Virus record (IMG/VR): IMGVR_UViG_3300044730_002015
Coordinates: 96,001 to 160,000 of that record
Strand: one strand, 5' to 3'
DNA: 64,000 nt
Source of the DNA: a virus
In this document: piece by piece, positions 14,062 through 61,219 of the stretch
Numbering within the stretch: the stretch's first letter is position 1
How the letters are laid out: each line of letters starts with the position of its first letter
Position numbers and translations under genes: made by a program
The notes under the pieces: generated by a model
What the model was told of the DNA's origin: nothing
Databases searched by the model: none
What the model saw: only the letters and a program-made list of their open reading frames with translations

Positions 14062-14617
14062 TTTGGTAGGCCTGTCCCCAGCGGGCATTGATCACATTCC
14101 AGTCAAATATTTTCCATATATTTGCGAGATATTGTTTTTTATCGCTTTGATAATCCAAGGCCCAGGCGTGTTCCCACCAGTCCACCAAGATTAAAATATC
14201 ATCGCGCACCTGGTGATTGGGTATGATTTTTATATCCCCAGATCTGGCCAGATAAACCCAGCCCGATCCCTGCACAGTCATGGCCTGTTTTTGGAATTGT
14301 TGTTTGAACTCCTCCCAGGATCCAAATTTAGCGTTGATCATGCTGCCAATGGGACCGTTGGGGCGATTGTTGTTGCGCGATTTTCTAAACTGTGGGAAAA
14401 ATAAATTGTGTAAAAAAGCACCAGCGTAGTTGAATTCCCTATCGCCTTCATCTTTATTGAATCGATCAGCATAGCCGTGGGCCAATTTGCCATAGTGATA
14501 TTCCATGGTCCGGGCACTCATAACGGGATTCAAATCCGAATCTGTGTAGGACAGTTCTACAATACCTATGTCCTGTGGTCGGCTTTTTTCTTCTAGTAAG
14601 GTGATTATTTCACGCAT
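14054..14617 (-). CDS. sod: Fe/Mn superoxide dismutase
   Basis: Metal ligands in YHYGK, FLHNLFF and DWWEHAW; QGSGW. Confidence 0.88.
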
Positions 14618-14622
14618 GACTC

Positions 14623-14628
14623 TATTTA
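14623..14628 (-). promoter_or_regulatory. T4-late-like TAAATA box, representative (also 3887, 4087, 13731, 22739, 33620, 41664, 53983, 59644)
   Basis: Recurrent TAAATA just upstream of gene starts; resembles the T4 gp55 consensus TATAAATA. Confidence 0.7.
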
Positions 14629-14629
14629 T

Positions 14630-14845
14630 TTAAAGTCTGCGTGTGACTCTGCCCTTGGTTAAATCGTAGGGTGAAAATTCCACTTCCACGCGATCGCCTG
14701 CCAGCACCTTGATGTTGTACTGGCGCATTTTTCCTGAAATATGTGCTGTGATTTCCGCGCCCTGGTCCAGGCGCACACGGAACATGGCATTGCGTAATAC
14801 TTCGGTGACTTGCCCTTCTAGTGTAAGCGAGTCTTCTTTACTCAT
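14630..14845 (-). CDS. infA: Translation initiation factor IF-1
   Basis: MSKED...[30 protein letters not shown]. Confidence 0.96.
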
Positions 14846-15003
14846 AAAAATTAATGATTTTCATTGGTTTTATCTAAGATCTCCATGATACTTCTCACCA
14901 CTACGTATATGGCTGGCATTCCCACTGCTGTGGCTACTGCTACTAACAAGAACACGTCATTCATGATTGCTCTCCTAGTGTGTGTTACTTATTTACGGTT
15001 TTG

Positions 15004-15822
15004 CTAGACTTCAATTAACTTTGGTTGCCACTGATCAGCACGGGCTTCGTAGCCCACATAGCCACGTGGGTTACACACGATCCTGGTACGCCCAATTTCA
15101 TAGTCAAAATCCTCGTGGGTGTGCCCGTGGGTCCACAGGCAGATTTCTGGACGGTCTAAAATGAATCCGTCCAGGTGAGAACTGTAACAGCCGTTCATGA
15201 GCACTTCGTTTTGATAACGAGCGTGTGTGCTTTGTCTGCTGGGCGAGTGGTGCCCTACCACGATCACACGATCTGAATGCTCTCCCCGGGCTCTGCGATC
15301 GTCAATGGTTTCTTTAATATATTTCAACATGGCTTCATGATCAGCCAGTGCATCCTGGGGCAGGAATCTCCAGGAGCCACCTGCTGCTCCATTGGCAGAA
15401 TGTTTCACACCTTTGAAATCGTGCATCATGCTGCCAGCAGCAGTCAAGGTCAAGGGATCGTTGCCGTTGAAATCAGTCCATAAGGTACCACCAATAAACA
15501 CATAGTCATCGATCTCAACTGACTGCTTGTCCAACACATGGAAGTTGTCATAGTCTGCCACTGCGGCACGGATGATGTCTGTGCTTTTGCAGAAGTCACC
15601 GTGATAGTGTTCGTGATTGCCCAGGATCATGACCACCTGGGGGAACAGGTTGTGGCACCTGTGCAGGAATGCCTGGCTCAACACACCGCGTGGATTCATG
15701 GTTTCTATATCTCTAGCCACCAGGATATCGCCCGACAGGATCAGCACATCTACATCGTGACGATTTTCAAGATCCAGATCACCAAATTCTAGATGGAGAT
15801 CGCTGGTAACATACAATTTCAT
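15004..15822 (-). CDS. Calcineurin-like metallophosphoesterase
   Basis: SDLHLE, GD, GNHE, HH, HGHTH, NPRGY motifs. Confidence 0.9.
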   Translation of the reverse strand: MKLYVTSDLHLEFGDLDLENRHDVDVLILSGDILVARDIETMNPRGVLSQAFLHRCHNLFPQVVMILGNHEHYHGDFCKSTDIIRAAVADYDNFHVLDKQSVEIDDYVFIGGTLWTDFNGNDPLTLTAAGSMMHDFKGVKHSANGAAGGSWRFLPQDALADHEAMLKYIKETIDDRRARGEHSDRVIVVGHHSPSRQSTHARYQNEVLMNGCYSSHLDGFILDRPEICLWTHGHTHEDFDYEIGRTRIVCNPRGYVGYEARADQWQPKLIEV

Positions 15823-16562: not shown

Positions 16563-16651
16563 GGCAGTTTCCGCCTCCTTTGATTTGCGATTTTATTAGT
16601 ATAGCACAACGGGATTTTTTGGTCAAGTCTAAGACCCTGATGGGGGCAGGG

Positions 16652-17092: not shown

Positions 17093-17094
17093 TG

Positions 17095-19982: not shown

Positions 19983-20012
19983 GGTTGGCTCCTTGTTGTT
20001 CACTATACCCAT

Positions 20013-21051: not shown

Positions 21052-21106
21052 TGCTATCTCCTGATTGGTTACGATATGCTTAGTATAGCAAATCGGAAAT
21101 TTTTGG

Positions 21107-22403: not shown

Positions 22404-22733
22404 TTATTCTGATGCTGGAGTCAGCCTAGGAATGATGTCAGCCATTTCCCGATCTATGGCACAAACCTTGCCAGGAAAACGACTTTTGAAATGTGTGCGT
22501 ATTTCTTCCCAGGTACGTCCTTGTGCTAGAAACTCTTGGGTTTTTTCGCTGTAGACGAAAAACATATCATCCACTTGCTCTACCTGTGCTATGACCATGA
22601 TGTCCGCCAACTGTAACAGTGCAATCAATTTACGATTGCGCCATACCAAATAGCGTTCCAGTATCAGTAGCAAGATGCGATACGCCACGGCACCAACCAC
22701 AAAACCCAGAATCAAGTACAAGATAGTGTCCAT
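22404..22733 (-). CDS. Membrane-anchored hypothetical protein
   Basis: N-terminal TM; EFLAQG; TAAATA-N5-ATG. Confidence 0.6.
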   Translation of the reverse strand: MDTILYLILGFVVGAVAYRILLLILERYLVWRNRKLIALLQLADIMVIAQVEQVDDMFFVYSEKTQEFLAQGRTWEEIRTHFKSRFPGKVCAIDREMADIIPRLTPASE

Positions 22734-22741
22734 AGCGATAT

Positions 22742-23062
22742 TTACTTTTGTAAGTTTTCCATAAAAATGATCTTGCCGATGGCAGTGCCTAGATCCTGAT
22801 CATCGTGTACGATGTGCAGTCTGGGTCTGGATTCTTCATTGGAGGTGCTAAGACCATGTATGGAGTTTGGGTCAACTTGTTTTTTGGTCTCCACGATCCA
22901 ACCACCATTGGCTCGATAAAGATTAAAACTCAGTGGCCTAGAATTCAACATTCTATCTTGCACGAAATCCTCGATTCGCAGAGGTTTGAGTTCAAGGGTG
23001 CATTGTTTGTGTTGTTCTGTTTGCAGCCAGTTATACAGCCTGCGTCTTAGATAATTCAACAT
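22742..23062 (-). CDS. Hypothetical protein
   Basis: Packed ORF; YRANGGWIVE. Confidence 0.5.
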   Translation of the reverse strand: MLNYLRRRLYNWLQTEQHKQCTLELKPLRIEDFVQDRMLNSRPLSFNLYRANGGWIVETKKQVDPNSIHGLSTSNEESRPRLHIVHDDQDLGTAIGKIIFMENLQK

Positions 23063-23519
23063 GGTTGACTTTCTGTTTGGGTGCTTGATATTGAAAGTGT
23101 GGTACCCATTGGTTTCCATTGCGTAAGAATCCCCATTCCCGTTGATGTGGTCCGGGTATGAACAAGGTCCAAGGTGTCACGCCAGGTTTCAACTCTATGC
23201 GATGATAAGAGCCAGCACCGCAAATACGGAAATGACCCGGTCCACGCCATACCGGGTGCTCACAGTAGACATGGCCAAGGGTATCCAGTGTTGGTATCCA
23301 TTCCCAGTATCCACCTTTAAGGATCAAGGTAAAGTAAGGCCAAGGATGATCGTGCGGATCCCAGGGATCACCTTTCAGGAACTTGTGTACAAAGATGTTG
23401 AACGGAAATCTGCCACGATCTTTCAAAAACAGATAGTATCGTTCAAGATACGGCTCTTGATTTTCTCGATCCAGGATAACACGATGGCGTCCAAAATACT
23501 GGAAGATTTTTTTAAGCAT
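23031..23519 (-). CDS. Cupin-like phage protein
   Basis: HDHPW...LKGGYWE...HRIEL cupin metal motifs. Confidence 0.7.
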   Translation of the reverse strand: MLKKIFQYFGRHRVILDRENQEPYLERYYLFLKDRGRFPFNIFVHKFLKGDPWDPHDHPWPYFTLILKGGYWEWIPTLDTLGHVYCEHPVWRGPGHFRICGAGSYHRIELKPGVTPWTLFIPGPHQREWGFLRNGNQWVPHFQYQAPKQKVNHVELSKTQAV

Positions 23520-23568
23520 AAAATGATTTTAGCACACTACGAAAATAAGATCAAGACCAATTGGTAAA

Positions 23569-25527
23569 TCAGTGTGCGGAATTTACAACTTCAATCTGGG
23601 TACCATCTTCTTTGATTGTGTGACAAGTCCTGATAAATTTTACATCAACGGTGGTCCAATCAATTGGTTTGGCCAAAGTGTGAAATCTGCGTATTTGAAA
23701 TTCGGGCAGTACTGAGTGCTGGCGTGATTCTTCCCAAGCGTCCCAAGCATATTTTACCGAAAACTTTACTGCCTGCGTTTCTCTAAATGTAGACATTTCT
23801 AAATAATCAACTAGATCCGCAAATGCATCAATGGGCATAAAATCTGCGAACATTTGCCTGATCTTTTGGAAAATTTCAGATCTGTGTCTTGACCAAAGTT
23901 TCAACAACACATTGAATATAGGTTCTTCTACGCCATCCAATTCAACCTTGCGCCAATCTTTGTCTGCATACTGGCCCGAAGCCATAAGATCGAGATATCG
24001 ATCAAACGGTTGATAGAATCCTGGCACAGCAACAGCTACTTCATATAATCTCCTGAGAGTTTGCCCAGCAGAGAAGTTTTGGTGCAACCGAAGATATTCA
24101 ATCATTGGAGTCAATAAATGTTGATTACTGATGATCATATCAAAATCGGTCATAAACATCATCTGTTTCCAATCATCGACTGTATAGCTCGAACTGCTGA
24201 CCGGAATAAAAACCACTTGATCTGACACTGTGGTGTTGTCGTAAATCGCGATGTAATCTTGATCCAATAGCTGTACCTGCTCGCCGCCTTCACCTTCCAT
24301 GCCCAAAGGTACCAATTGCAGTTGATGTTGCTTGATATAGTCGGGATTGGCTGCTGGTGTATCTGGCATGACGAAAAACGGTGCGCGAGTCACCCCACTG
24401 TATTTGTTAAACACACGATGCACTATGTTGCATTCTTCATAAAAGTCGTCCAATGTGCTGCCGGGCAGGCCCAGTATCAATTCTACATTGACTCCAATGT
24501 CATAATCATCTATATAGGATCTGGCCATTGCTATGTTATCTTCCAAACTGATATCAGTGCGATCTATGTTTTTAAGAGCAATTGGGCTGACTGTCTGTAT
24601 GCTCATTTGATAGTTTCTAACCAGTCCGGATTCTATCAGCGGTGTTAACACAGCACGTCTTTTGTCAATCTGTACTTTAGCCAGGCCTCCTATGTACACA
24701 TCATTCAGTTGATCTTTCAAGGCAGCAAACATTTCAGCGATCTTGGCGTCTCTAGGAAGTATACCAAAATTGGCATCTGTGATGTACACACTTTTGACTC
24801 CTATCACAGGAAAGTAACTGAGATCGTCAGCAATATTTTCCATGCTGTTTGGTACTACCTTGGTATTGATACCACCGCCCCATTCGCAATAAACACAACC
24901 ATATGGACATCCTCTGTTGGTTTCATACAGCACTGTTACCGGTCTTCCGCTTTGTTGGCTGTATTCAGCGTATTTCATTGATTCATCTAAGTTGGTAGAA
25001 TACACACCACTGGGGAAAACAAAATCTCTTTTGTTGGGTTGTGGACCGCGGCCGCCCGGATGATAACTATTCCGGACATTAGACCAATCAAGATTGTTGT
25101 CAATGATAGAATCTAAGGTATCGGTTAAAAACCATTCCCCGTATTCGGTAGGTGTACAGGTGGCGTCAAACCAAGGATATTTTTTAAACCATAGCAGTGG
25201 AGATGTATGCGTGGTATTTTGATGTGGACCGCCCAAGACCAATAAAGCATTGGGCTGTAGTTTTTTCACTTTCTGAGAGACAATTTTGATTACATTCCAA
25301 CTCCACATATAGCTGGAAAAGGCATAGACATCGGCTTGATGCTGTACTGTGTCCTCTACTATATCCTCTATGCTCCAACCAGTGTAGTCTATCTTTGGAG
25401 CAATCCATTGCCATTGGTCAGGGTGCCGGCCATTGAGTTCATAGTATCTTTTGAAACTAAAATAACTGCCAGGTAAGAAAAGATCGTAGCGAGTGGTGTC
25501 AAATTTGAAAAAGTGAATCTTTTTCAT
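23569..25527 (-). CDS. Cobalamin-binding radical SAM protein
   Basis: FSSYMWS and VLGGPH (B12-binding domain); ETNRGCPYGCVYC; TDANFG; ELILGLPG. Confidence 0.88.
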   Translation of the reverse strand: MKKIHFFKFDTTRYDLFLPGSYFSFKRYYELNGRHPDQWQWIAPKIDYTGWSIEDIVEDTVQHQADVYAFSSYMWSWNVIKIVSQKVKKLQPNALLVLGGPHQNTTHTSPLLWFKKYPWFDATCTPTEYGEWFLTDTLDSIIDNNLDWSNVRNSYHPGGRGPQPNKRDFVFPSGVYSTNLDESMKYAEYSQQSGRPVTVLYETNRGCPYGCVYCEWGGGINTKVVPNSMENIADDLSYFPVIGVKSVYITDANFGILPRDAKIAEMFAALKDQLNDVYIGGLAKVQIDKRRAVLTPLIESGLVRNYQMSIQTVSPIALKNIDRTDISLEDNIAMARSYIDDYDIGVNVELILGLPGSTLDDFYEECNIVHRVFNKYSGVTRAPFFVMPDTPAANPDYIKQHQLQLVPLGMEGEGGEQVQLLDQDYIAIYDNTTVSDQVVFIPVSSSSYTVDDWKQMMFMTDFDMIISNQHLLTPMIEYLRLHQNFSAGQTLRRLYEVAVAVPGFYQPFDRYLDLMASGQYADKDWRKVELDGVEEPIFNVLLKLWSRHRSEIFQKIRQMFADFMPIDAFADLVDYLEMSTFRETQAVKFSVKYAWDAWEESRQHSVLPEFQIRRFHTLAKPIDWTTVDVKFIRTCHTIKEDGTQIEVVNSAH

Positions 25528-25565
25528 ATTTGTACTTAGCATGGGTCAGCGGGCGGTCAAAAGGA

Positions 25566-25587
25566 AACAGGTGCCGAAGCACCTGTT
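25566..25587 (-). terminator. Intrinsic terminator with cUUCGg loop
   Basis: AACAGGTGC-TTCG-GCACCTGTT followed by T-rich tract on the minus strand. Confidence 0.7.
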
Positions 25588-25616
25588 GTGACTTACCAGT
25601 CGACTGGTTCCTGCTA

Positions 25617-30262: not shown

Positions 30263-30637
30263 TTAAGAATTTGTGGTATGCTTACAGGATTTTCTAAACT
30301 GGAAACCTGGGCAGGTACAAGACCAACCACCGGACCAACGGCTCACGGTGTACTCATTGCCTTTGCTACCTGAAACTGTCCAGGTCTTGACATCTGTGTC
30401 AATTGTGGTCACTGACCCCGAGACGATTTCCAAATCAGTGACAGCCGCGGCATTGATCACTCGTATGGGAAAGTCAGCATCACCGGTAATACAGAATTCT
30501 CTGTCGGTCAGCCACTTGTGTGGCTTGACCACACGGCCTTCGAACACCTGAACACTGGCCCTGGGTGGGATCATGGACGAGGCCATACGGTCGCGTAGCG
30601 TCACACGGATAACACTATCAAGGGCTGGTATTTTCAT
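30263..30637 (-). CDS. SWIM zinc-finger protein
   Basis: GSKGNEYTV...CTCPGFQFRKSCKH. Confidence 0.8.
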   Translation of the reverse strand: MKIPALDSVIRVTLRDRMASSMIPPRASVQVFEGRVVKPHKWLTDREFCITGDADFPIRVINAAAVTDLEIVSGSVTTIDTDVKTWTVSGSKGNEYTVSRWSGGWSCTCPGFQFRKSCKHTTNS

Positions 30638-31119
30638 AGTGTGTTGAATATACGGGATTCTGAATATTCGGTCAACAGGTATTGATGGCTGTCATTTAGA
30701 GCACGATACATCTGTGCCTTGCTTACGCCAAAATGATCATAGCCTTCTTCCAGCATAGTCCAGTAGCCTTCGTCGGGCGGAAAATCCAATTGGCCAGGCG
30801 TCATATGATACACCACGGCGTGATATGTTTGGCCGTGACACACCACGGGCAGGACCTGTCGGGTGTAGTAGTGTGGATAGCCTTCGCGAACATCCAATCT
30901 GGCCAGGTGTTCATCGGTGATCTGCCACAGCACACCGGCCACCGACTGATTGTGAGTGGGCACAACATCAGCGTGGACAGCAAAACGGAACCGCCATTCC
31001 TGCAGATGTGCGGCGCCCAGACTACGAGCAACACCGTCGGCGCTGAGCCGTTCGCTCATGGCATCAGGATTGGTGTTCATGCCATAGGCAAAATAGTAGT
31101 GTAGATTTTTACTGTCCAT
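30634..31119 (-). CDS. Gamma-glutamylcyclotransferase (GGCT/AIG2-like)
   Basis: YFAYGMN, GVLW, LDVREGYP. Confidence 0.85.
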   Translation of the reverse strand: MDSKNLHYYFAYGMNTNPDAMSERLSADGVARSLGAAHLQEWRFRFAVHADVVPTHNQSVAGVLWQITDEHLARLDVREGYPHYYTRQVLPVVCHGQTYHAVVYHMTPGQLDFPPDEGYWTMLEEGYDHFGVSKAQMYRALNDSHQYLLTEYSESRIFNTL

Positions 31120-31177
31120 ACACATATATTAGCATATCTGGGAATTATAGGTCAACCGCAGATTAGTGCCTACTAAC

Positions 31178-32089
31178 CTAGCGTAAACCAGCGATTCTTT
31201 GCGCCATTGCGGCGTACATCTTTGTATCACGCTCGATCAATATAGATCTGCGTCCTTGATTGTGTGCGGCCACACCAGTGGATCCCGATCCAGCAAAGGT
31301 ATCTAGCACTGTGTCACCGGGGCGACTTAGCAAGGCCACAAAGTATTCCAATATTTCTGTGGGCTTTTGTGTAGGATGTATCTTGTCTCGGCCTAGTCCA
31401 CCACTGTAAGTCAAGGTATTGGGTATCACACACTCCACTATGTCATCTTTGCGTTTGCGGCTGTCTAACATGGTCTGTGCCTGCTCTTCGGCCATGGCCA
31501 TGATCTGGGACAAGGCGTAAGTGGGATGATCTTTGATCAGTTTGTATACTATGCTAGAAACTTTGTCGGCTCTAGCATAACGCTCAACGATACTGTGTTC
31601 TTCGGCATCGGCATTGAAGATTCTGGTGCCGCCGGGCTTGATACCAAACAGCACATACTCACAGGCACTCACAGGATTCACTCGGCGATTGAAAGGAACT
31701 GCAGCGGGCTTTTTCCAAGTCCATACTCGCTTGGGTTCAAATCCCTGTGCTTCCATGATCTTCCAAAGATGTGAAATATACTGATCAGAAATGAACACAG
31801 CAAAGGCTCCACCTTTTCGTAGTTTGCTGTGCCATACACCGGCCCAGGATTCCATTTGCTGTAAGAATTCTTCGTGACTCACGCTGTCCCAATCCTGCTC
31901 AAAACTTTCACTGAAACGCTGGCTGTGTATGGTATTTTTGTTTTGACCAGTTTCAGGATCAATCCACTCAGGTTTGGCGCCACCATCACTGATGTTGTAC
32001 GGTGGATCAGTCAACAGCAGATCCACAGAGCCGGCGGCAATTTGATCATGCACCAATAGGAAATCACCTGTGATTGTTTTTACAGTCAT
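31178..32089 (-). CDS. DNA N6-adenine/N4-cytosine methyltransferase, beta class
   Basis: TDPPYN, HPTQKP, DTFAGSGST. Confidence 0.92.
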   Translation of the reverse strand: MTVKTITGDFLLVHDQIAAGSVDLLLTDPPYNISDGGAKPEWIDPETGQNKNTIHSQRFSESFEQDWDSVSHEEFLQQMESWAGVWHSKLRKGGAFAVFISDQYISHLWKIMEAQGFEPKRVWTWKKPAAVPFNRRVNPVSACEYVLFGIKPGGTRIFNADAEEHSIVERYARADKVSSIVYKLIKDHPTYALSQIMAMAEEQAQTMLDSRKRKDDIVECVIPNTLTYSGGLGRDKIHPTQKPTEILEYFVALLSRPGDTVLDTFAGSGSTGVAAHNQGRRSILIERDTKMYAAMAQRIAGLR

Positions 32090-32120
32090 ACTATTATTTT
32101 AGCAGAAACCAGGTATGTGG

Positions 32121-33614
32121 TCAAGAGAATTGGATGTGGAATCCAGGAGCGTTTTGATCAGGAGTGTCGGTGCCAGCATGATACTGAAAACCAAATTTTA
32201 AATCTTTGAAAGGAGTTTCACTGACTTGAATAGATCCGTTTTTATTGATAGTAATCCAGGCAGCCTTGGCGTTTTTCTTTGTCATGACATTGGTAATTGT
32301 CTGAGCCATGTCCTTGGCATCTTCGCCTTCTACCACTGCATTACGGAATGCCATGCCCAACATATAAGTCAGCTGTCTGCTGGCTGCTCTTTTAAAATTA
32401 GCGTCAAACTTGGCTCGGGATCTTGGTATACCTACGGGTTTGACATTTTTTCCGCGTGTTCGGCCTGCTGCCAACGCTGCAGGCATGATGGTGTCGATGT
32501 AGGCGGTATACAGGTCCTTTTGACCTTGGGGAGTCTGCGACAACTTATCAATTAGATTGGACACAGCAGATTCCATTTCTGCATAGTTGGTAGGAGCGGT
32601 GCCTAAAATCTGATTCAGTTTTGTGGCTTCAGGAACTTGGGCTTTTTGGGCTGCTCTTATCAGTTTGTCGTTGGTCTTGCCTTCTTTGCTGATAAAATCT
32701 TTTAGAATAGCAAAATACTTGTCAGCATTCCAAGCCGAATCGCTGGCGAGCATGCTTTGCTCATAATCATCGATCAGATCGCGTATGGCGGCAAAACTAT
32801 TACCGCTGCCGCCAAGACTTTTTACAGCCACTGGGGTGCCTTTGACTGTGACATCGATCAAGGGAGTGTTAGATACCGCCGAAAAGGAAATTACATCATT
32901 GGCATTTTGAGCCAGCACTATGGGAGTCAATATTTCACCAAAATCCTGACTTATAAGATTCAAACAGGGTGTAATATGATCCATGAGTTCAGGATCAATA
33001 GATTGTCTTTGACCTGCTGCCACATCTATCAACTGTGACAATGCCTGCTGTAGTTTTATGTCAGACGGGATAACAGCAGGAAGATTCTTTTTGACCAAGG
33101 CTATCATCTGTTGCTTGGTGAGATCGATACCTTTGAGCCCAAATTTTTCTGGGCGCAACATTTGTATGCCAACTTGGCATTTACCCTCGGCGCCTACAGG
33201 TCCACCCTTGCCAGCAATGACCACTGTAAAAACTGTGCCATCTCTGCCGGTGGCGGTGTAGATACTGTCTTTGTAAGTGCCCGACACCATTTGCGTGGGA
33301 TTGGTGGTTTTTGTCAAAGGCAAACCATTTTTTGCCAGCAATTCTACCACTCTATCTTTGGGCAAGGCATTGAGTATTCTAATACTAGGAATCAACTTAT
33401 TGGCGTTGGGATCTTCCACATCGTTGCGTACATTTACCGATGGAAACTCCTTGGCTAGAATGCTTTTGATTGATTCTATAGGCTGCTGTTGCTCTAATTT
33501 GTTGGCATATTTGACACCATTGATTTCAAAAGGTCCCATGCCCTTGGCTCTGGAACGCTTATTGACGTCAGCAGTTGGGGTATCTTGCTCTCTCAGCATT
33601 TCTATAAATCGCAT
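32121..33614 (-). CDS. Large hypothetical protein with possible PD-(D/E)xK nuclease fold
   Basis: DFGE...NTPLID...AVKS; TAAATA-N5-ATG; MRFIEMLRE N-terminus. Confidence 0.45.
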   Translation of the reverse strand: MRFIEMLREQDTPTADVNKRSRAKGMGPFEINGVKYANKLEQQQPIESIKSILAKEFPSVNVRNDVEDPNANKLIPSIRILNALPKDRVVELLAKNGLPLTKTTNPTQMVSGTYKDSIYTATGRDGTVFTVVIAGKGGPVGAEGKCQVGIQMLRPEKFGLKGIDLTKQQMIALVKKNLPAVIPSDIKLQQALSQLIDVAAGQRQSIDPELMDHITPCLNLISQDFGEILTPIVLAQNANDVISFSAVSNTPLIDVTVKGTPVAVKSLGGSGNSFAAIRDLIDDYEQSMLASDSAWNADKYFAILKDFISKEGKTNDKLIRAAQKAQVPEATKLNQILGTAPTNYAEMESAVSNLIDKLSQTPQGQKDLYTAYIDTIMPAALAAGRTRGKNVKPVGIPRSRAKFDANFKRAASRQLTYMLGMAFRNAVVEGEDAKDMAQTITNVMTKKNAKAAWITINKNGSIQVSETPFKDLKFGFQYHAGTDTPDQNAPGFHIQFS

Positions 33615-33618
33615 CTAA

Positions 33619-33927
33619 CTATTTATTGGTGTCGGCATTGTCCTCGATTTGTACCATAATCATGCGATAAGCGTCATGATTCCTGCTGGAACCATCGGCA
33701 TTTTCCCAAGAGTCGGTCCATTGTTGTATGCGAGGATCTACTGCAGAAGAGAATTTAACACTGTACAATTGCCCGTGTGGCCACTCTATGGATTCAAGGG
33801 CAACATCCTGCTGTGCAAACCATCGTAAGATATCCCTGTGCAGGCCTGATTCTAAGTCCAACAATTGAAGCAGATAAATCGAGTTACCTTCGCCGGCATC
33901 TGCTATGGTATCATGCAGACTGTTCAT
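33619..33927 (-). CDS. Hypothetical protein
   Basis: ATGA overlap with clpP. Confidence 0.5.
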
Positions 33928-34522: not shown

Positions 34523-35179
34523 TTATCGGTCTGAATTAATGGGAGTATCTTTAACTATTTTGGGGATCTTGGGCAGTTTGCCGGATTTGCTTTTTTCAGA
34601 AAATTCTTGATAGTTGCCGCCAATGTGATCGCAGATGTTTAATTTCATGGCCTCGTCGGCAGACAACCAAACATCCTGGCTGGGCAACAGGTACTTGCGT
34701 ATGCTGGCATCTGACGCACCTGTACAACGACGATAGTGCTCAATCATACGCTGCTCAGTGAGTTTGAATTCCTTGACCGTGGCAAACAGTTCATGAGCCT
34801 TGCCTTCAGTTTGCCAAGAGAACTGATGGCTTAGGATAGAAGTATTGGGAGTGAGTATTCTGCGCCCTTTGGTGCCCGCCATGAATATCAATAGGCCACA
34901 GCTGGCTATGCAACCCAAGCCCACAGTTTTGATAGGCACTGTGGAAGAATTCATTACATCGATCAAGGCAAATGCTTCGGAAATGTCCCCACCGCCACTG
35001 CAGATCATGAGCAACAGTTCCTTTTTCTTGACCTTGGCCAGGTGGTTTTCAAATAGTATCCATTCGATAATGGGTTTCATAGATTCAGCAGAAACTGCAT
35101 CCATGAACACATACATTCCTGCGTCCATCAACGATTGACTATGGCTTTTGTCCAAATCTTCAGTATCTTGTGTGCTCAT
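34523..35179 (-). CDS. Second, divergent ClpP-family protease
   Basis: [24 protein letters not shown]. Confidence 0.85.
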
Positions 35180-35227
35180 GATATTATTGTACGGGAGTTT
35201 ATTACTTAATGCAATACGCACTGGCAA

Positions 35228-35261
35228 ATAAAAAAGGCCCCGATAAACCAATACCGGGGCC
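35228..35261 (-). terminator. Intrinsic terminator
   Basis: GGCCCCG...CGGGGCC stem followed by T6 on the minus strand. Confidence 0.6.
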
Positions 35262-35477
35262 AAGCACTGCTAGGAGGTAAACTTACTGGAAATTTCTGAT
35301 GGCAATTTCTTGCTTGATACGCAGATCTATCATACGATCAATGGTGCTTTTATTGTCAATGGCTTCATACATAGTTTCCAAATCTAAGAGTTCTGAAAAA
35401 CTGCTGTTCTGTATCATGTGTTCTTCCATTGATATGGGATTTATCACAGTCATTTTATTGATCCTTGTGTTATCAGA

Positions 35478-38401: not shown

Positions 38402-38690
38402 TTTGTTGCTCCTTTTTTTACTGTATGTCTATATTATAGCAAAATGGGAATTTCTGGTCAACCGCGGCGTTTTTGGATTTCACGCAGGGTTTCAATGTGG
38501 CGCTCGTTTTCCAAGCGGGTTTCACGGATCAAAGCATAGGCCTGTCCTAGATTGAAAATAGCAAAGCCACCGCAGGCCATGACAAATATGGTTACAATAG
38601 TATCTACTGTCATCTACATCTCCTTGTGATTTACTATACCCATATTTTAGCACGGGCTGAATTTCTGGTCAACCGTGGAAAAACAGCCAA

Positions 38691-41142: not shown

Positions 41143-41657
41143 GACAATAATTGTAGCACGTTTTCATATGTGTCGCAAGTGAAATTGGTCAATATTTGGT
41201 AACGTTCGGGTGCTGTTTTTACTGCATCAATCTGCACGAATTGGCAGTTGGTATTGCCAGAAATTATGGTATAAATTTGGTCACTGTATGAAGCAGGTTG
41301 TTCCAGATCAAATCCCAACAGCAATATCAAATCGTACTGCTGGCTGGCGATGCTGACAGCAATGACATCATCTTGATATTCAACATCTGTTCGAGGAAGA
41401 CCTTCAAACCATTTAACGCCCAGCGGTTCGCCTAACTCCTTGCAATAGATTTTGGGAAGATAAAAATTGGCAGCACCTTGAAATGCTCTAGACAGTAGTT
41501 CTCTAGATTTACGTATTTCGCTGCAGGTGCAATTGTCTGTTTTGAATTCGCGCCAGGTGCTCCAGGAGCCCCAGGTGGGAGCTATGTCTTGTAGCCTACC
41601 ATATACCTTGGTGGGTAATAGTTGTAAAGATTCGCTAATGATCCAGGCTACACGCAT
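41139..41657 (-). CDS. Hypothetical protein (ILLLGFD motif)
   Basis: TAAATA-N6-ATG; ORF track. Confidence 0.5.
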   Translation of the reverse strand: MRVAWIISESLQLLPTKVYGRLQDIAPTWGSWSTWREFKTDNCTCSEIRKSRELLSRAFQGAANFYLPKIYCKELGEPLGVKWFEGLPRTDVEYQDDVIAVSIASQQYDLILLLGFDLEQPASYSDQIYTIISGNTNCQFVQIDAVKTAPERYQILTNFTCDTYENVLQLLS

Positions 41658-41716
41658 TTTAGATATTTAGTTACACAAAAAGGGCCCAGGGCCCTTTATT
41701 GTGTGGTTCCTAACTT

Positions 41717-48947: not shown

Positions 48948-49236
48948 GGTAGATATTGATTTTATACTCTACTGCGAATTACTGCTAGTAGTTAGGTTAA
49001 GTTGACAGGGATTTTGAACATTGGCATTGCTGCCTTGATTGATCTGTAGTCTATCAAGTTCTGCAATCACACCTACATATAACAACAGATCTTTATTCAT
49101 GATATCACATAGAAAAATGTCGTTGATTTGCATCAACGACATAGTTTCCACGGCTTGCCTCCGCTGGGGTCTACAAATATTTACGGCGCAATCATACAAA
49201 ATAAACTGAGCATACAAAGAAAACATAAATTATTGC

Positions 49237-50022
49237 ATGGCCTTTGCATTTGATCTTATTTCGGATCTGCACGTTCTTCCAGAAGATGACTTCTCCTGGG
49301 AAGGTCAAGCCACCAGCCTGATTGCCATAGTGGCCGGAGATGTCAGCAAAGATCGGGCCACTACTGTTGCTGTGCTTAAAGAAATAGCATCCAAGTACCG
49401 ACAAGTTTTTTATCTGGATGGCAACACCGAACACAGGTACTTCTTAGATGATATCCCGGCCAGCATAGAAGATCTTGAAAACGAACTCAATGTCATTGAA
49501 AATTTGGTTTATCTAAACAACAAGGTAGTGATCAGCAATGGCATCGCTATACTTGGTACCAATGGTTGGTGGGATTACGAATTTGACCAGACCGACGACA
49601 TTGAGCAAAGTTTCAATTTCGTCACAGACACTTACAAGATCACCAGAGATGCGGCCTATAAACTCTTGAGCCTGGCATATCAAGATGCTGCTTATCTCAC
49701 ACGCAGTATTGAAAAACTACAAAGGCACAGAGATGTCAGTCGTATCATTGTAGTAACGCACACCTTGCCTCGAGCCAGTTTGGTTCAACACGACCCAACC
49801 CTGCAAGGAACTTACAAAATGGGCCTAATGGGCAATGCTGGTATGCAGGCTGTGCTGGATGCAGATACCGAAAAGAAAATCACACATTGGTTATTTGGAC
49901 ACTACCACGGACGTGTGGATCAGGCCATTGACGGTGTAAGATATATCAACAATCCGCGTGGTAGGGTTTCAGATGTACTGCATGATCCTTATCATCCACT
50001 AAGGATCAGTATACAGATTTAA
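49237..50022 (+). CDS. Calcineurin-like metallophosphoesterase
   Basis: SDLH, AGD, GNTEH, THT, FGHYH, NPRG. Confidence 0.85.
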   Translation: MAFAFDLISDLHVLPEDDFSWEGQATSLIAIVAGDVSKDRATTVAVLKEIASKYRQVFYLDGNTEHRYFLDDIPASIEDLENELNVIENLVYLNNKVVISNGIAILGTNGWWDYEFDQTDDIEQSFNFVTDTYKITRDAAYKLLSLAYQDAAYLTRSIEKLQRHRDVSRIIVVTHTLPRASLVQHDPTLQGTYKMGLMGNAGMQAVLDADTEKKITHWLFGHYHGRVDQAIDGVRYINNPRGRVSDVLHDPYHPLRISIQI

Positions 50023-50955: not shown

Positions 50956-51183
50956 TCAATACAGTTGTTTGGGAAGTTGTTGACTGGACAGTTGTTTTTT
51001 CCAACGACGCACGGCCTGTTTTTTCTTTTGTTTGCGTATGACATTGGGTTTGGTATATTCCGCGCGGTCGCGAAGTTCCAGCAGTAGTCCGGATTCTTGG
51101 ATTTTCTTTTTAAATTTACGCAGGGCCTTTTCCACATTGCCGTCGGGCACTATCACACTGCGTCCATACAATTTAGCACTCAA
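50956..51183 (-). CDS. rpsU: Ribosomal protein bS21
   Basis: NVEKALRKFKKK...G.L.ELR.R.EYTKP...RK. Confidence 0.9.
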   Translation of the reverse strand: MSAKLYGRSVIVPDGNVEKALRKFKKKIQESGLLLELRDRAEYTKPNVIRKQKKKQAVRRWKKQLSSQQLPKQLY

Positions 51184-52384: not shown

Positions 52385-53977
52385 TTATTTTTTCAAGGTT
52401 ATATCACGGGCCAAGATATTTTGCAATTGAGCACGCTCGCTGTCGCTTAGTAGTTCAGGATCATATTCACCGCTGGCAATTTTCTCGATTAGGTATTCTA
52501 TGTAATTCTTATCGTAACTATATGTATCTGTGGTATTTTTGTCAATCTCTATCCATTGGTTACCATTGTATTTGAACAATTTAGTAGGCAAATAATCTAC
52601 ACGTAAAAACTGATCACCTTTTTCTGCAAACTTTGGCCACTCGACCCCAAATCTCACATTGGCCGGATCATCATTGGTATCTTCTTTAATTTTGATCTTT
52701 GAATTCCACAATTCTGGATGCATAGACATCAATGCTTCACGACGCCAAAGTTTGCCTTGATAATCTATGTACTCGGCATCTAAATCAATGTCGTTATTTC
52801 TGCTAGATTGAGACTGCATAAATTTCTGGATCACAGTAGGAACAGATTCTTGAGTGTCCTCATCTTGGGTTATATCGTCAATGACTGGCGATTCATCAAC
52901 TTTGGTTGGATCTAGGACTTGGGCGGGCAGAGGTTGGGGTATTGAAGAGTCCGGAACCATTGGCTGATCATTTGGTTGTACAGGTTCAATGGGTCCAAGG
53001 GCAGCAGGTTCTGCGGTGGCAGGCTCTGCAGTCTGCGGTACTGATTGAGGTACAGGTTCTTTGCGTTTGAAACGGGATTGAACACGCTGAACCAATCCTC
53101 TACCACTCTGGGCCATACCATCAATAAAATCAATAAGTTTGCGTTCATATCCTTGTTCCTTGTGGTTGTTTTCTGGATCAGGCTGAGGTATAGGTTCATT
53201 TCGTAAACGTGCAACCAGGCCCGAGCGATGCCACTGCATTGATTCTGTGGCAGCCAACACCATCATGATGGCCAAGGGATCAAACACAGCCACTATGATG
53301 ATAATGACCCAACGCACGGCCTTTTCCAAAAGATTGGCATCGGGGTTGTCGCCGTAGATCAGTGCGGCAATATACTTGATTGGACCAACTTCGGCTTCAA
53401 CTTTGCGCACTTCTGATGCTATGGGTGCGCGGACTTCATTTAGTTTGGCGATCTCAGCCTGTGCCCTGCCGATGTCTGCTTGCAGTGTGCCACGCTCTCT
53501 GGCTTGATTGCGTCTCAAGGCCGCAGCCTTGTCTGCGCCTTTTTCGTCCGATGAACGAGCCATGGTCTGATCCACGGCTTCGTCCATTTGCTGCAGGGCC
53601 TTGCGAGCGGCTGCAATATTGTCACGCTGTGTTTTGATCTTTTCATCTACCAGACTGAGTTTGGCCTGCACATCTCCCGAGGGTATGGCCTGATCAAGGT
53701 GTGCTTTGCTGAGAAAGCCAAAGATACCCATGCTGGTCAACAGCATGAGGAAGAACACAGCAGGCACCAAGTAGGCCTTCATTATGGGGCGGCACAGGCG
53801 CCAGTATTGGTGCAACCATACAGTGATGGCTACTTTGGCTACCTCCAGCGCTCCACCCATGATAATGATTGGAATCACAGCTGCGGCAAAGATAGCAGTG
53901 AGACCTATGATGCTGTACCAGGCTGCTATAACACTGAGACTGAGTGCTATGAATAATATTAGATAACTTAAGAACAT
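52385..53977 (-). CDS. Multi-TM coiled-coil phage protein
   Basis: N-terminal TMs, TSMGIFGFLSKAH, coiled coil, VGPIKY, VFDPLA. Confidence 0.65.
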   Translation of the reverse strand: MFLSYLILFIALSLSVIAAWYSIIGLTAIFAAAVIPIIIMGGALEVAKVAITVWLHQYWRLCRPIMKAYLVPAVFFLMLLTSMGIFGFLSKAHLDQAIPSGDVQAKLSLVDEKIKTQRDNIAAARKALQQMDEAVDQTMARSSDEKGADKAAALRRNQARERGTLQADIGRAQAEIAKLNEVRAPIASEVRKVEAEVGPIKYIAALIYGDNPDANLLEKAVRWVIIIIVAVFDPLAIMMVLAATESMQWHRSGLVARLRNEPIPQPDPENNHKEQGYERKLIDFIDGMAQSGRGLVQRVQSRFKRKEPVPQSVPQTAEPATAEPAALGPIEPVQPNDQPMVPDSSIPQPLPAQVLDPTKVDESPVIDDITQDEDTQESVPTVIQKFMQSQSSRNNDIDLDAEYIDYQGKLWRREALMSMHPELWNSKIKIKEDTNDDPANVRFGVEWPKFAEKGDQFLRVDYLPTKLFKYNGNQWIEIDKNTTDTYSYDKNYIEYLIEKIASGEYDPELLSDSERAQLQNILARDITLKK

Positions 53978-53985
53978 AAGAATAT

Positions 53986-54366
53986 TTAGCGGTTCACAAA
54001 CTTGTGATTCAAACCATGTTTCAGCACGATTTTGAACACCCAGGGCAAACTGGGCACATCAAACCACACAGGCACAGCATCCAAACGATGGAATATCTTG
54101 TGGTTATTGTGCCGGAAAACAGTGTTGATATGGTGTGTCATGCGTTTCATACGGCTGAGTTTTAATTTCCTTAACACACGCTTTTGACTGCCAAATCCCT
54201 GCCTACCAAATTCTCTGGCGGCATCGTGCAAGATATCATACCATTGTGCTGTGCTGGTGATTTCAAAAACAACACGGTGCATAACTCCGAGACCCGTTGA
54301 TTCTAAGGAGGACAATTCTTCATTACATAATGATTTAGCATTAGCGGTAAGATGACTGTCAGACAT
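53986..54366 (-). CDS. Hypothetical protein
   Basis: AAGGA RBS before MSDSHL. Confidence 0.5.
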   Translation of the reverse strand: MSDSHLTANAKSLCNEELSSLESTGLGVMHRVVFEITSTAQWYDILHDAAREFGRQGFGSQKRVLRKLKLSRMKRMTHHINTVFRHNNHKIFHRLDAVPVWFDVPSLPWVFKIVLKHGLNHKFVNR

Positions 54367-55540: not shown

Positions 55541-56777
55541 CTTGATTCTGTGTCACAGCGTCGGCGCGGATCTCTACCATGTTACCAATGACAGCAGTCC
55601 TATGATTCCATATGCTGTCGCGAAGGCTATCAGTAAAACCACTGCCAACATTAACACAAATTTCACGAGTATCGTCAGTGCCCTTACAGACCAAGGCACC
55701 AAGCCTGCCCTGATTTTTGCCTGTGCCAACTTCAACATCTTGAACCTCCAGGGTAACTTCAATAAAAGGCTTAGACTTCAGCCAAGCAGTGCTACGTTTA
55801 CATTCATACACAGCATCGGGATCCTTGATCATGATGCCTTCGTAGCCGCCGGCTATGGCCTGCTGATTTATTTCACGGAAACGCCGTTGTCCCGCCGCAC
55901 TGTCTAAATCCACTAACTCATGGCTCAAGACCTGAACATTGGGCAAGCGATCACGCACTGAGTGATGCCATCCTACCAAGGCTTGTGTGCGACTTTGTTG
56001 TGGGTCTTCTGACACACCTTTTTGGAACTCTTCCAGTGTTAGTCTATCAAACAAGTGCAACACTGAATCATCGGCCTGCACATCGCTTTTACGATGCACC
56101 TGCCGCATGAGATCCTGGAATGAACTAGACATAACTTCACCGTCGTAGACCCAGGGTTCTGTGAGTGTGCCAGCGATGGATTCAAACTGCTGTCGTATGC
56201 GCTCGAAGTTGACGAACTCTTTGCCGTTGCGGCTGTATTGGTTAACACGGCCATCGGGGTGTACGATAGTGACCACACGCACTCCGTCTAGTTTGACCTC
56301 CACCATCTTTTCACCTGCGATCTTGCTTTCGTGGTTGGCACCATCGTGCGCCAACTGCACAGCAAACACAGGCACGATCTCTTGCTTGAACAATTGCTGT
56401 GCCACATCATTGATGGTCTTTTCTGACACACCACAGCGCAGATCCTTGATCAAGATACGTCTGTACCAACCATTCCACTGGGCCTCAGTGGCCTGGCGCA
56501 TGGCATCAGCAATGGCATCACGGGCCGCATCACCAGTGAGTTCACGGGTGGCCAGTTTTCGAGCAAGTTCACAGAACTCTGCCCAACCCAGTCCCGATCC
56601 TGACTGTTTAGATTCTGCTACTTTTTTCACACCAAAGGTTATCATGGCATCGTAGGCCATACGTGCGCCTTGTGCAAACTCGCCATCCACACCTTGCTGG
56701 GTCAACACCTGCTCAACTATGGCCTGTTTGGCCAACCTACTGGCGTCTGATTCCAACTGCTCAATGATCGTGTTCAT
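55470..56777 (-). CDS. lig: ATP-dependent DNA ligase
   Basis: EVKLDGVR, YDGE, EGIMIK, WLKSK, VGSGF, SLRFPRF. Confidence 0.95.
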   Translation of the reverse strand: MNTIIEQLESDASRLAKQAIVEQVLTQQGVDGEFAQGARMAYDAMITFGVKKVAESKQSGSGLGWAEFCELARKLATRELTGDAARDAIADAMRQATEAQWNGWYRRILIKDLRCGVSEKTINDVAQQLFKQEIVPVFAVQLAHDGANHESKIAGEKMVEVKLDGVRVVTIVHPDGRVNQYSRNGKEFVNFERIRQQFESIAGTLTEPWVYDGEVMSSSFQDLMRQVHRKSDVQADDSVLHLFDRLTLEEFQKGVSEDPQQSRTQALVGWHHSVRDRLPNVQVLSHELVDLDSAAGQRRFREINQQAIAGGYEGIMIKDPDAVYECKRSTAWLKSKPFIEVTLEVQDVEVGTGKNQGRLGALVCKGTDDTREICVNVGSGFTDSLRDSIWNHRTAVIGNMVEIRADAVTQNQDGTYSLRFPRFLRFRGFEPGEKI

Positions 56778-56814
56778 AGTGTATAGTGTATTGTCAAGAG
56801 TAATTATTGGGCAA

Positions 56815-58510: not shown

Positions 58511-58754
58511 AGATAGCTGCCGAACGGGCATCACGTTTGAGGCAGGTGCTTCGCTGCCAGTCGTGCCTGGGTCCGCGGTATTTCACGCTGATGATTCGGC
58601 CTGGACTGCAGAGTCGGATCAGGCGTTTGATTTGGGCCAACTGATCTAAGGGCACGCCCTTGACTGTGCTGGATTCTGTGGCTGGACTTAGGTAAGTGTT
58701 GACTAACTTACGCTGATCTTGGCTGAGAGCAAATGTATATAAAAATTTATCCAT
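58500..58754 (-). CDS. Early hypothetical protein
   Basis: Promoter TAGACC-17-TATACT directly upstream; YRGPR motif. Confidence 0.55.
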   Translation of the reverse strand: MDKFLYTFALSQDQRKLVNTYLSPATESSTVKGVPLDQLAQIKRLIRLCSPGRIISVKYRGPRHDWQRSTCLKRDARSAAIYVY

Positions 58755-58811
58755 ACACCAAGTATAACACAAGGTGATTTATTGGTCTACCAGAAGTAAG
58801 TGCGCACTAAC

Positions 58812-59639
58812 CTAGAATAAACCATTATGCTCATCGTCTCTAAACTGGCTTTCTAGTTGCCCCAGCGATAAACGGCTCAATGCACGATCCAGGCTATCTT
58901 TCCTGGCCGCCCGAGATGTATTACCTGCACTGATCAGTGCATAACGATGATTATCAAGTTCTATTATCATGGCCAGACAAAATCCTGCCGCACGAGTATA
59001 TCCGGTCTTGGCCACCACTGTGGTAAACGACTGCGGATCTCTAGCATAGGGATTGGTGGCGCGACCTATAATCTTTTCGATCCAGGTGCGTTTCTTGGCA
59101 GTTTTGACTATGGCGATTTCAAGACCGTCTTGGTTTGAAAATTGTTTTATTATATCAAATCGACTGGATCTGTCCAAGATCTTGATCAAATCATCTGCGG
59201 TAGATTTGTTTGCACTGCCGATACCCGATGCATCTACGAACACAGTGTTCTTGGCACCGATATTGTCAGCCAAGGTATTCATGGCTGCCAAACCCAATTT
59301 ATTGCCGCCAGGGTAATGATGTAACAATGTTTCTGCTGCGAGATTGTCTGATGTGACCAACAACAACTGCATCAACTCTCGCCGAGTCAGTGTCATACCC
59401 GGATGTATGCGATTGCTGGATTCGCTGCCGCGCACTCGGAGTTTTTGATCCAGGTCCTGGCCCGCATCAATCACCACCATGGCCGTGGCCAGTTTGGTGA
59501 TGCTGGCTATTGAAATCACCTGATTGGCCTGCTGGCCTTCTACATAGGTTTTACGATCAAGATCATAGATTACCAGTATCTGGCTGTGTGCCGACACTGA
59601 TACCAGGCACAGCAGTATAGCTGCCGAAAATTTCCACAT
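58812..59639 (-). CDS. D-Ala-D-Ala peptidase (S11; PBP5/PBP7-like)
   Basis: Signal peptide; SITK (SxxK), SDN (SxN), KTG. Confidence 0.9.
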   Translation of the reverse strand: MWKFSAAILLCLVSVSAHSQILVIYDLDRKTYVEGQQANQVISIASITKLATAMVVIDAGQDLDQKLRVRGSESSNRIHPGMTLTRRELMQLLLVTSDNLAAETLLHHYPGGNKLGLAAMNTLADNIGAKNTVFVDASGIGSANKSTADDLIKILDRSSRFDIIKQFSNQDGLEIAIVKTAKKRTWIEKIIGRATNPYARDPQSFTTVVAKTGYTRAAGFCLAMIIELDNHRYALISAGNTSRAARKDSLDRALSRLSLGQLESQFRDDEHNGLF

Positions 59640-59654
59640 CTATTATTTAAGAGT

Positions 59655-60467
59655 TTAGACTCTGGCAGTGATCAGCAGATGCCAGCCAAAGTTGCGTTTT
59701 AAACAATCAAAGATTTCAGGTGGCATGGAGTCAAACCAGGGCTCTCGAACATATTGATAATTTTTGTATTCGGGTATGCTGTAAGGGAAGATATGATCTT
59801 GCCTGATCTGTACCGACTGGAACCGGTTGAATGCTTCGTATACTTCTTCGTGAGTATAAGTTTTGGCCTGAGGACAGCCTGGTTGTGCTTCTGGCTGTTC
59901 AAGACCATCACGTATCAATGCTGCCTTATAGGAGTTTTCGGCGTAGAGCATGATGCGGGCCTCGCCCCCGGCATTGAGTAATAGATGCAGTTGATCGATA
60001 ATCAGTTGTGGCGTTTCTGAATGATGTATCACTCCAAAACTATAGATCAAGTCAAACTTTTGACCTTGGAATATCTGGCCAATCTCTTCAGCATTGCCTA
60101 TCAAGAATCGGCCTGCTAATCCTTCCACTTGAAATCTCTGCTGGGCCAACTTCACTGATTCGTCAGATAAATCAAAACCGGTATAGTCAGCACCTGCACG
60201 GGCAAACTCAGCAGCATCGGTGCCTATGCCTACACCAATTTCAAGCACACTTTTGCCTGAACAATTGTCAAATCCAGCAAATTGTGGAATATGCGGTTCT
60301 ACAAAATATCTACGTTGAGTGACTTCCTGGTAGTACTCTAGTGTGCCCACGGGCTGCGTGCTGTGCCTGATGTTGCAGGGTCGGCGATTCCAGTATTCGC
60401 GGATGTTGGACAGTGTGGCTTCTGCGGCGGGAGTACTTAACTCCTGTTTGATTTCTTCTGTGATCAT
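59655..60467 (-). CDS. Class I SAM-dependent methyltransferase
   Basis: [21 protein letters not shown]. Confidence 0.88.
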
Positions 60468-61183
60468 CGGATTTGTCCTGTGTGTCTTGCCAGTCGCTCG
60501 CGCCAGGTCATTAGATCGCGCTGGCGATCCGGATGTGCATAATCCACAGGATTGGTAGGATCTTTGCCATCTGCAGAGTAACTGGTTTCTCGGTAGGTTT
60601 CGTCGTTGTTGCCGCCAGTGATGTCAGCACGATTATGATATACATCCACGCGGATGTTGAGCATACGAGTCAGTGGTGCGGTTACATTGTATATCCACCA
60701 ATCCGAATGGACCACCGGAGAAATCTCTTTAAATAGTTTAACCCAGCCCTGTGGTATGATAGGAAACAATGCAAATGGATGCTGGTGATTGATGCACTGC
60801 ATACGCAGGCATCCAAAATAATCAGGATACTTCAGTACCTCTCGATCCCAGGCATTGGTCAGCATGACCGCATCGTCGTTCCAGAACATGATCCAATCGC
60901 CAGTGGCGTGGCTACCTAAGAGGTTTACATAGCGATGCAGTTGGGTATAACCATAACGCTCGCTTTCAAATATTTGCAATGTCACGCAGGGCCAATATCT
61001 GTTTAGATCGGGCCAGACCGTGGCAAAGAAATTTCTACTTTCGTCGTCGTCGCGGTCATATGCTATGAGTATTTCAAGTTCGCCGTCACCGGAAAAGTTA
61101 TTACAGATGCTGGTAAGACTGGTTACCAAGGCACGGGCTCGCTTGCGCGTGGGCAATAGCACTGATATTTTTTGTGTTTTCAT
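60464..61183 (-). CDS. Glycosyltransferase family 2-like
   Basis: [22 protein letters not shown]. Confidence 0.78.
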
Positions 61184-61219
61184 AATACTATGTAGCGGGC
61201 TTGGTCATCGAGAAATAAT

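Follow-up and report, generated by a model that had tools for sequence, protein, structure and literature searches.

Candidate leaderless transcription units behind T4-type late and sigma70-type promoters in a T4-like phage contig

Results

Contig and promoter-adjacent genes

The window analysed here (64,000 nt) comprises bases 96001–160000 of a linear virus contig of 169,524 bp from IMG/VR (47.5% GC). In it, boxes resembling T4 late promoters and promoters of the sigma70 type stand immediately in front of start codons, mostly with spacers of 5 and 6 nt, respectively (written N5 and N6). The contig, estimated by CheckV to be 48% complete, encodes approximately 187 predicted genes, of which approximately 170 are on the minus strand. 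It contains homologues of genes of Pelagibacter phage Mosig (Kyanoviridae), namely a gp43-like DNA polymerase, a gp44-like clamp loader and the ribosomal protein bS21; a capsid module (major capsid protein) was absent among the matches on these 169 kb, 48% of the genome by CheckV. Neither a megablast search with 20 kb of the window nor a tblastn search with a 497-aa protein gave any match among 50,697 phage records. Orthologues were shared with three related IMG/VR contigs, G001 (204 kb), G002 (180 kb) and G003 (140 kb). Because these relatives are each an estimated 40–56% complete, share orthologues with the contig and encode a gp55-like sigma factor, the contig is, judged by its gene content, part of the genome (approximately 350 kb) of a T4-like giant phage.

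Promoter-adjacent starts numbered 13–15 in the window, close to the approximately 15 genes given in a preliminary description of this DNA, and 22–25 on the contig. All 15 sites listed in that description had the sequence reported for them. The genes concerned are mostly accessory single-gene units, encoding a superoxide dismutase (SOD), a DNA methyltransferase, ClpP-like, GGACT-like, carboxypeptidase and phosphoesterase proteins, and products without assigned function (Table 1).

Table 1. Promoter-adjacent starts and related features. Positions are window coordinates, except those marked genome, which are numbered along the contig; open reading frame, ORF; Shine–Dalgarno, SD.
Feature	Position	Strand	Gene	Remark
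TAAATA-N5-ATG	14615..14628	-	Fe/Mn SOD (14054-14617)	TAAATAGAGTCATG
TAAATA-N5-ATG	22731..22744	-	109-aa ORF (22404-22733)	no SD core
TAAATA-N5-ATG	33612..33625	-	497-aa ORF (32121-33614)	box overlaps 3' end of preceding gene
TAAATA-N5-ATG	53975..53988	-	530-aa ORF (52385-53977)	weak virion-protein PHROG match
TAAATA-N4-ATG	59637..59649	-	D-Ala-D-Ala carboxypeptidase-like (58812-59639)	Pfam Peptidase_S11; no SD core
Intrinsic terminator (GGGCCC..GGGCCC+TTTTT), then TAAATA-N6-ATG	41655..41700	-	172-aa ORF (41139-41657)	
TAAATT-N5-ATG	49226..49239	+	Metallophosphoesterase (49237-50022)	one-base variant
Terminator hairpin (dG -14.7), then TAAGTA-N5-ATG	25525..25600	-	B12-binding radical SAM (23569-25527)	
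TACATA-N5-ATG	61181..61194	-	GT2 glycosyltransferase (60464-61183)	weak candidate
Further TAAATA-N5-7-ATG starts, outside the window	genome 13567, 21059, 22731, 26328, 29716, 31993, 33551, 38012, 161650, 165357			one is a 1395-aa ORF
TTGACC-N17-TGCTAAAAT-N6-ATG	32087..32124	-	N6/N4 DNA methyltransferase (31178-32089)	
TTGACC-N18-TGCTAATAT-N6-ATG	31117..31155	-	Gamma-glutamyl cyclotransferase-like (GGACT-like) (30634-31119)	
TTGATC-N17-TGCTAAAAT-N6-ATG	23517..23554	-	Cysteine-dioxygenase-like (23031-23519)	
Strong terminator (dG -19, T6), then TTGCAT-N17-TACAAT-N6-ATG	35177..35262	-	ClpP-like protease (34523-35179)	
TAGACC-N17-TGTTATACT (TATACT)-N6-ATG	58752..58789	-	84-aa ORF (58500-58754)	
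TTGACC-N17-TATATT-N9-ATG	30635..30675	-	124-aa ORF (30263-30637)	predicted 2-3 nt leader; not in preliminary description
TTGCCC-N18-TACACT-N7, weak	56775..56814	-	ATP-dependent DNA ligase start	doubtful member
TTGACA-N17-TGCTAAAAT-N6-GTG, outside the window	genome 30483			
Two leadered early promoters, TTGACC-N17-TGCTA(T/A)AAT, N30-31, AAGGAG, ATG	38401..38672	-		comparators; others start 16626, 20041, 21110, 21365, 30158, 37252, 58309
Phage initiation factor IF-1 (infA-like)	14630..14845	-		PF01176, 82 bits
Phage bS21	50956..51183	-		PF01165, 56.8 bits

The TAAATA class

The box TAAATA occurred 67 times on the two strands of the contig, 51 times on the sense strand and 16 times antisense, and lay mostly just 5' of ORFs, in front of late genes as expected for a late box of the T4 type. 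An ATG followed at exactly N5 in 10 cases, compared with 0–4 at other offsets. When only ATGs opening an ORF of at least 50 codons were counted, N5 again gave 10 cases against a mean of 0.69 elsewhere (P=3.8e-9; Poisson test with the counts at other box-to-ATG offsets as background). When the first ATG of each gene was taken mechanically as its start, the box stood at N5 before 10 of 187 starts and before none of the 526 in-frame ATGs inside genes. The arrangement is real and far above chance. The remaining sense-strand boxes were mostly found 15–30 nt 5' of fibre or structural genes, with AAGGAG between box and start, resembling T4. Unlike in T4, the full 8-bp consensus TATAAATA was not kept; the conserved part spans 6–7 bp and is closer to the (G)CTAAATA of phage Aeh1.

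One-base variants of the box were less convincing, and no clear N5 peak was obtained when they were pooled across four genomes. TAAGTA was weakly enriched at N5 (3 of 31 copies, background 0.44). It is present as proposed before the radical SAM gene, although a second in-frame ATG 15 nt further upstream (25542) makes the start assignment uncertain. TAAATT was likewise only weakly enriched (3 against 0.44); the orthologue of the phosphoesterase gene in locus L002 has the canonical TAAATA, at N6. TACATA was not enriched at N5 (1 against 0.3), and the proposal that it serves as a late box for the GT2 gene is at chance level.

Start assignment was clearest for SOD. With the Pfam domains (Sod_Fe_N/C) beginning at residue 20 and no further in-frame start before codon 29, the proposed ATG is the only start that preserves the domain. 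This 187-aa product was likewise called on 12 public contigs. A transcript-like contig beginning at the SOD ATG was sought among them, and all 12 ran further upstream. The genes for IF-1, SOD and an Fe-S biogenesis protein (PF01521, ErpA/IscA-like) are contiguous (window 13750–14845), and this block was kept on the 12 contigs (JGI, ENA and Logan), one of which had approximately 380x coverage. For the 530-aa ORF, tblastn homologues aligned from residue 1–2. The 109-aa ORF had zero matches in Pfam or PHROG. For the promoter-adjacent genes in general, Pfam domains and homologue alignments began no more than a few residues from the proposed ATGs.

The sigma70-type class

The early promoters of the phage form a family, (gg)TTGACC-N17-TGCTATAAT, most copies of which precede a conserved leader (approximately 24 nt), AAGGAG and a start codon at N29–31. 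Among the 13 strongest promoters with a TGC-extended -10 element, the distance from this element to the start was exactly 6 nt in four and 19–34 nt in nine, with none between; all nine of the latter carried an AAGGAG site. The four N6 members precede the window genes starting at 32089, 31119 and 23519 and a gene with a GTG start at genome position 30483. A -35 element, a 16–18 bp spacer and a -10 element were all found at 32089, 31119, 23519 and 30637, and the -35 element was weaker at 35179 and 58754. In the gamma-glutamyl cyclotransferase-like gene, a further in-frame ATG lies at N0 (31125). The distance histogram suggested in the preliminary description bore out the N5 peak of TAAATA, but no N6 peak appeared with the generic -10 pattern TANNNT, either before all ATGs or before all gene starts; the early N6 class has too few members to stand out with this pattern across the genome and became visible only when the -35 element and the TGC extension were required.

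The DNA ligase (56777) had also been counted as a member. Its promoter is weak, and ligase orthologues have a canonical promoter, a leader of approximately 25 nt, AGGAG and TTG, GTG or ATG starts, which speaks against its inclusion. The region upstream of the ligase gene (55470–56867) differs from that of its orthologues, and the ORF reaches 30 codons further up, to a TTG at 56867.

The leadered early promoters constitute a repeated cassette (16590–16626, 20005–20041, 21075–21110, 21330–21365, 30120–30158, 38425–38461 and 38635–38672). The -10 element is followed by a conserved transcribed block (ATGGGTATAGTAAAC-like), within which a second -10-like TATAGT lies, and this block in turn by AAGGAG. 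It also precedes the ligase orthologues in loci L010–L013 and may represent either a tandem promoter or an element of the 5' untranslated region. Separately, an operator-like palindrome adjoins the -35 element of two predicted leaderless early promoters on the minus strand. It reads AGGTTAGT-aggc-ACTAACCT in a 97%-identical relative (L014), and AGGTTAGTAGGCACTAATCT (31156–31180) and AGGTTAGTGCGCACTTACTT (58790–58815) in the window, and may be a repressor site.

Predicted 5' ends and translation signals

The -10 hexamer recognized by sigma70 occupies positions -12 to -7, and a spacer of N6 therefore puts the predicted +1 on the A of the ATG. The T4 late box occupies -13 to -6, its first position being named A(-13) (PMC2988020), and the Aeh1 late motif CTAAATA starts at -12 (PMC1524935). 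Given these positions, TAAATA-N5 likewise predicts +1 on the A of the ATG, in agreement with the geometry proposed previously. The two promoter types, each with its own spacing rule, would thereby share one predicted 5' end.

An SD core was found in 0 of 22 promoter-adjacent genes, compared with 83 of 187 genes overall (mechanical first-ATG rule). In line with the claim that these starts leave no room for an SD sequence, no candidate had an SD core, in contrast to the leadered early promoters carrying AAGGAG. The word 'pervasive', used for the arrangement, was too strong for approximately 12% of the genes. In five genomes, the starts at TAAATA-N5 with an ORF of at least 50 codons were 43 ATG, 4 GTG, 1 TTG and 1 CTG, while the SD-led genes of the phage often start with GTG. 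This preference fits the dependence of leaderless initiation on AUG, as attributed to Brock et al. 2008 in PMC5312081. Strong intrinsic terminators stop 50 nt short of the ATG at 35179 and 31 nt short of that at 25527; at 41657, 19 nt separate the end of the T-run from the ATG, a gap that fits the TAAATA box only. With strong terminators directly upstream, these three genes are hardly served by read-through.

Predicted leaderless and leadered members occurred under both early-type and late-type promoters. The dual translation programme put forward in the preliminary description consequently showed no temporal split.

Conservation among orthologues

Orthologues of the methyltransferase were retrieved from 27 IMG/VR loci (64–93% aa identity) with approximately eight distinct upstream sequences. 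Most kept TTGAC(A/T)-N17-TAT(A/C)(A/C)T-N6-ATG, while the six spacer bases varied by lineage (aatagt, aatact, tacaat, acgtgt, atacaa, taccca, tgacgc, agcaat and ctatag). In some lineages, the ATG had shifted by 1–3 codons and the promoter had moved along with it. A few lineages had an N18–N26 leader with an SD sequence instead, and the two layouts therefore interconvert. In the late class, six orthologues of the 497-aa protein (62–67% aa identity) kept GCTAAATA at N5 or N7 before the ATG, and orthologues of the 530-aa protein in five loci (L002–L005 and L023) kept TAAATA at N4 or N5.

Relatives and control phages

TAAATA-N5-ATG starts with ORFs of at least 50 codons were also counted in G001–G003 and four reference phages (Mosig, Syn9, S-PM2 and T4), all assembled from fetched regions. 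The arrangement recurred in G001 (11 cases, Poisson P 5.5e-7), G002 (7, P 1.2e-4), G003 (9, P 5.5e-7) and Mosig (6, P 2e-3). Counts in Syn9 (0), S-PM2 (1) and T4 (3) were not significant, and the TAAATA-to-ATG distances of these three phages clustered at N20–30. Strong sigma70-type promoters at N6 numbered five each in G002 and Mosig, two each in G001 and G003, one in Syn9 and none in T4 and S-PM2. In Mosig, 8 of 11 TAAATA-N5-ATG sites coincided with coding sequence (CDS) starts annotated by the depositors, including those of the tail tube protein at 24964 and a gp2-like DNA end protector at 106670; further ones are at 60990, 94129, 60328 and 92996.

The gene for bS21 had homologues in Mosig, G001 and loci L002, L003 and L005; among the tested genomes it was present only in this contig, G001 and Mosig. 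Neither the complete Mosig genome nor the examined parts of G001–G003 contained IF-1. The nearest cellular homologues of IF-1 were 54–64% identical and taxonomically scattered (WOR-3, Blastocatellia, Saccharibacteria, Clostridia and others), and an inference of the host from IF-1 was rejected.

Discussion

We consider leaderless mRNAs from both promoter classes the best reading of these data, and a probable one. A T4-type late box with the core TAAATA, often GCTAAATA, would be read presumably by a gp55-like late sigma factor and ends 5 nt (sometimes 4–7 nt) before the ATG; promoters of the host sigma70 type, TTGACC-N17/18-TGCTAnAAT, end 6 nt before it. With +1 predicted on the A of the AUG in both classes, the transcripts would have the start codon at their very 5' end. 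They would then be translated along the leaderless route, which needs no SD sequence: the 5'-terminal AUG is recognized by a 70S ribosome or by IF2 with fMet-tRNA. Since accessory single-gene units predominate among these genes, the layout may represent a minimal self-contained expression cassette, used beside the ordinary units of promoter, 20–30 nt leader and AAGGAG that most other genes have.

Several observations weigh against leaderless expression. The predicted transcription starts carry positions over from T4, Aeh1 and E. coli. Spacings of N4–N7 at some sites and in some orthologues would put the 5' end 1–2 nt off the AUG, and the early class is small, with 4–6 convincing sites. The 169-kb contig, 48% complete by CheckV, gave no match to gp55, gp33 or gp45. 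Finally, many candidate starts lie 4–12 nt past an upstream stop codon, so polycistronic read-through with termination–reinitiation could also translate them.

The last point leads to the alternative that the boxes are real promoters, but that the ORFs are translated mainly from longer read-through mRNAs, by reinitiation, coupling or A/U-rich (S1-type) initiation, the short transcripts being minor or serving downstream genes. The position of most late-class candidates 4–15 nt behind the stop codon of the upstream gene favours it, as does the overlap of some boxes with the end of the upstream coding sequence. Furthermore, 26 other genes seem coupled and 56 have neither an SD sequence nor a promoter, so that initiation without an SD sequence has to be frequent in this phage in any case. 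Coupling does not, however, predict peaks at N5 and N6 that are sharp to one nucleotide, nor two spacings that follow promoter type; three candidates stand directly behind strong terminators, and orthologues keep the geometry while the spacer sequence varies. On balance, we regard translation from read-through mRNAs as unlikely. It is very unlikely that TAAATA near the ATG is instead a translation signal, such as an A/U-rich enhancer or a site for ribosomes carrying phage bS21. Although the motif is A/U-rich, sits where an SD sequence would and occurs in a phage encoding both bS21 and IF-1, the same GCTAAATA is found at N20–30 before SD-led fibre and structural genes, like T4 late promoters. 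A translation signal would also leave the sigma70-type N6 class, with its -35 and extended -10 elements, unexplained, and Mosig shares the layout without IF-1.

Chance or misassigned starts, with the true starts downstream behind ordinary ribosome-binding sites, would account for the ambiguous pairs 25527/25542 and 31119/31125, for the weak ligase site at 56777 and for TACATA at 61183, which is at background level. This explanation is already disfavoured by Poisson P values of 1e-4 to 4e-9 in four genomes, by the domains and alignments that begin close to the ATGs, and by independent annotation that agrees with them (the Mosig CDS starts and SOD on 12 contigs), and we hold it to be extremely improbable.

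For large lytic phages, T4 is the textbook model both of late transcription and of translation led by SD sequences. Its late promoters consist of the TATAAATA box, recognized with the gp55 sigma factor, the gp33 co-activator and the gp45 clamp (PMC2988020). The phage studied here resembles T4 and Aeh1 in having a TAAATA core that ends at -6 without an obvious -35 element before late and structural genes, and its relatives carry gp55-like genes. Unlike T4, Syn9 and S-PM2, in which the box lies approximately 20–30 nt from the ATG with an SD sequence between, it has an additional sharp N5 class without room for a leader.

Leaderless transcripts are known from other phages. Middle and late transcripts of the Thermus phage phiYS40 are described in PMC3594737 as mostly leaderless, with IF2 going up and IF3 down, and in the phylum of its host, Deinococcus-Thermus, -10-adjacent ORFs are the norm and leaderless mRNAs are common (PMC12340547). 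Like phiYS40, the present phage is lytic and has -10-like elements beside ORFs, and many of its transcripts may begin at the start codon, as predicted here from sequence. In contrast to phiYS40, in which this concerns the majority of middle and late mRNAs, the arrangement is restricted to approximately 12% of the genes, and it involves both sigma70-type and gp55-type promoters in a T4-like phage. The lambda cI mRNA from PRM is the classic leaderless mRNA (PMC10491246, PMC9031893) and provides a sigma70 promoter with +1 on the A of the AUG and no SD sequence, as predicted here. Whereas cI is a single regulatory gene of a temperate phage, here a family of at least 20 genes is concerned, with a layout kept across a clade. 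In phiKZ, leaderless mRNAs do not occur (PMC8244752). The closest likeness is to Pelagibacter phage Mosig EXVC030M (Kyanoviridae; MT647606), which has an excess of both N5 (6) and N6 (5) starts and encodes bS21 and gp55; it differs in its genome of 141 kb with 33% GC, in amino acid identities of 27–45% for the shared genes tested and in being without IF-1.

Our literature search found no paper on leaderless units in T4-like, Kyanoviridae or pelagimyophage genomes, Mosig included. What appears to be new is that a T4-type late promoter and a sigma70 promoter, each a known component, are joined to start codons throughout a phage clade. Such genomes are mishandled by gene callers and promoter finders, for example through the choice of upstream TTG or GTG starts inside the promoter. 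If the proposed leaderless expression is true, leaderless initiation would extend well beyond Actinobacteria, Deinococcus-Thermus, archaea and phage phiYS40. The presence of the layout in Mosig, which is cultured with Pelagibacter HTCC1062, makes it directly testable by 5'-end mapping.

The phage encodes both IF-1 and bS21, as reported in the preliminary description, but the tie drawn there between these genes and a dual translation programme found no support. As the complete Mosig genome shows the layout without IF-1, IF-1 as a necessary driver was rejected, and a causal link of IF-1 or bS21 to the layout is speculation. If leaderless expression is true, the layout would nevertheless give phage-borne ribosomal and initiation-factor genes a concrete and testable context. 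A more far-reaching scenario is that T4-like giant phages of a widespread aquatic clade, the cultured SAR11 phage Mosig among them, regularly use promoter-fused starts, and that phage-encoded ribosome parts (bS21 and, here, IF-1) retune host ribosomes to 5'-AUG and open a private translation channel. We consider this scenario quite unlikely.

ORFs resembling the gp55 late sigma factor were detected in G001–G003 (E ~1e-10). The matches (L122, at G001:162712–162990, L123 and L124) lie in open frames of 295–307 aa, compared with 172 aa for gp55 of Mosig, and the late sigma factor of the clade may carry an extra domain.

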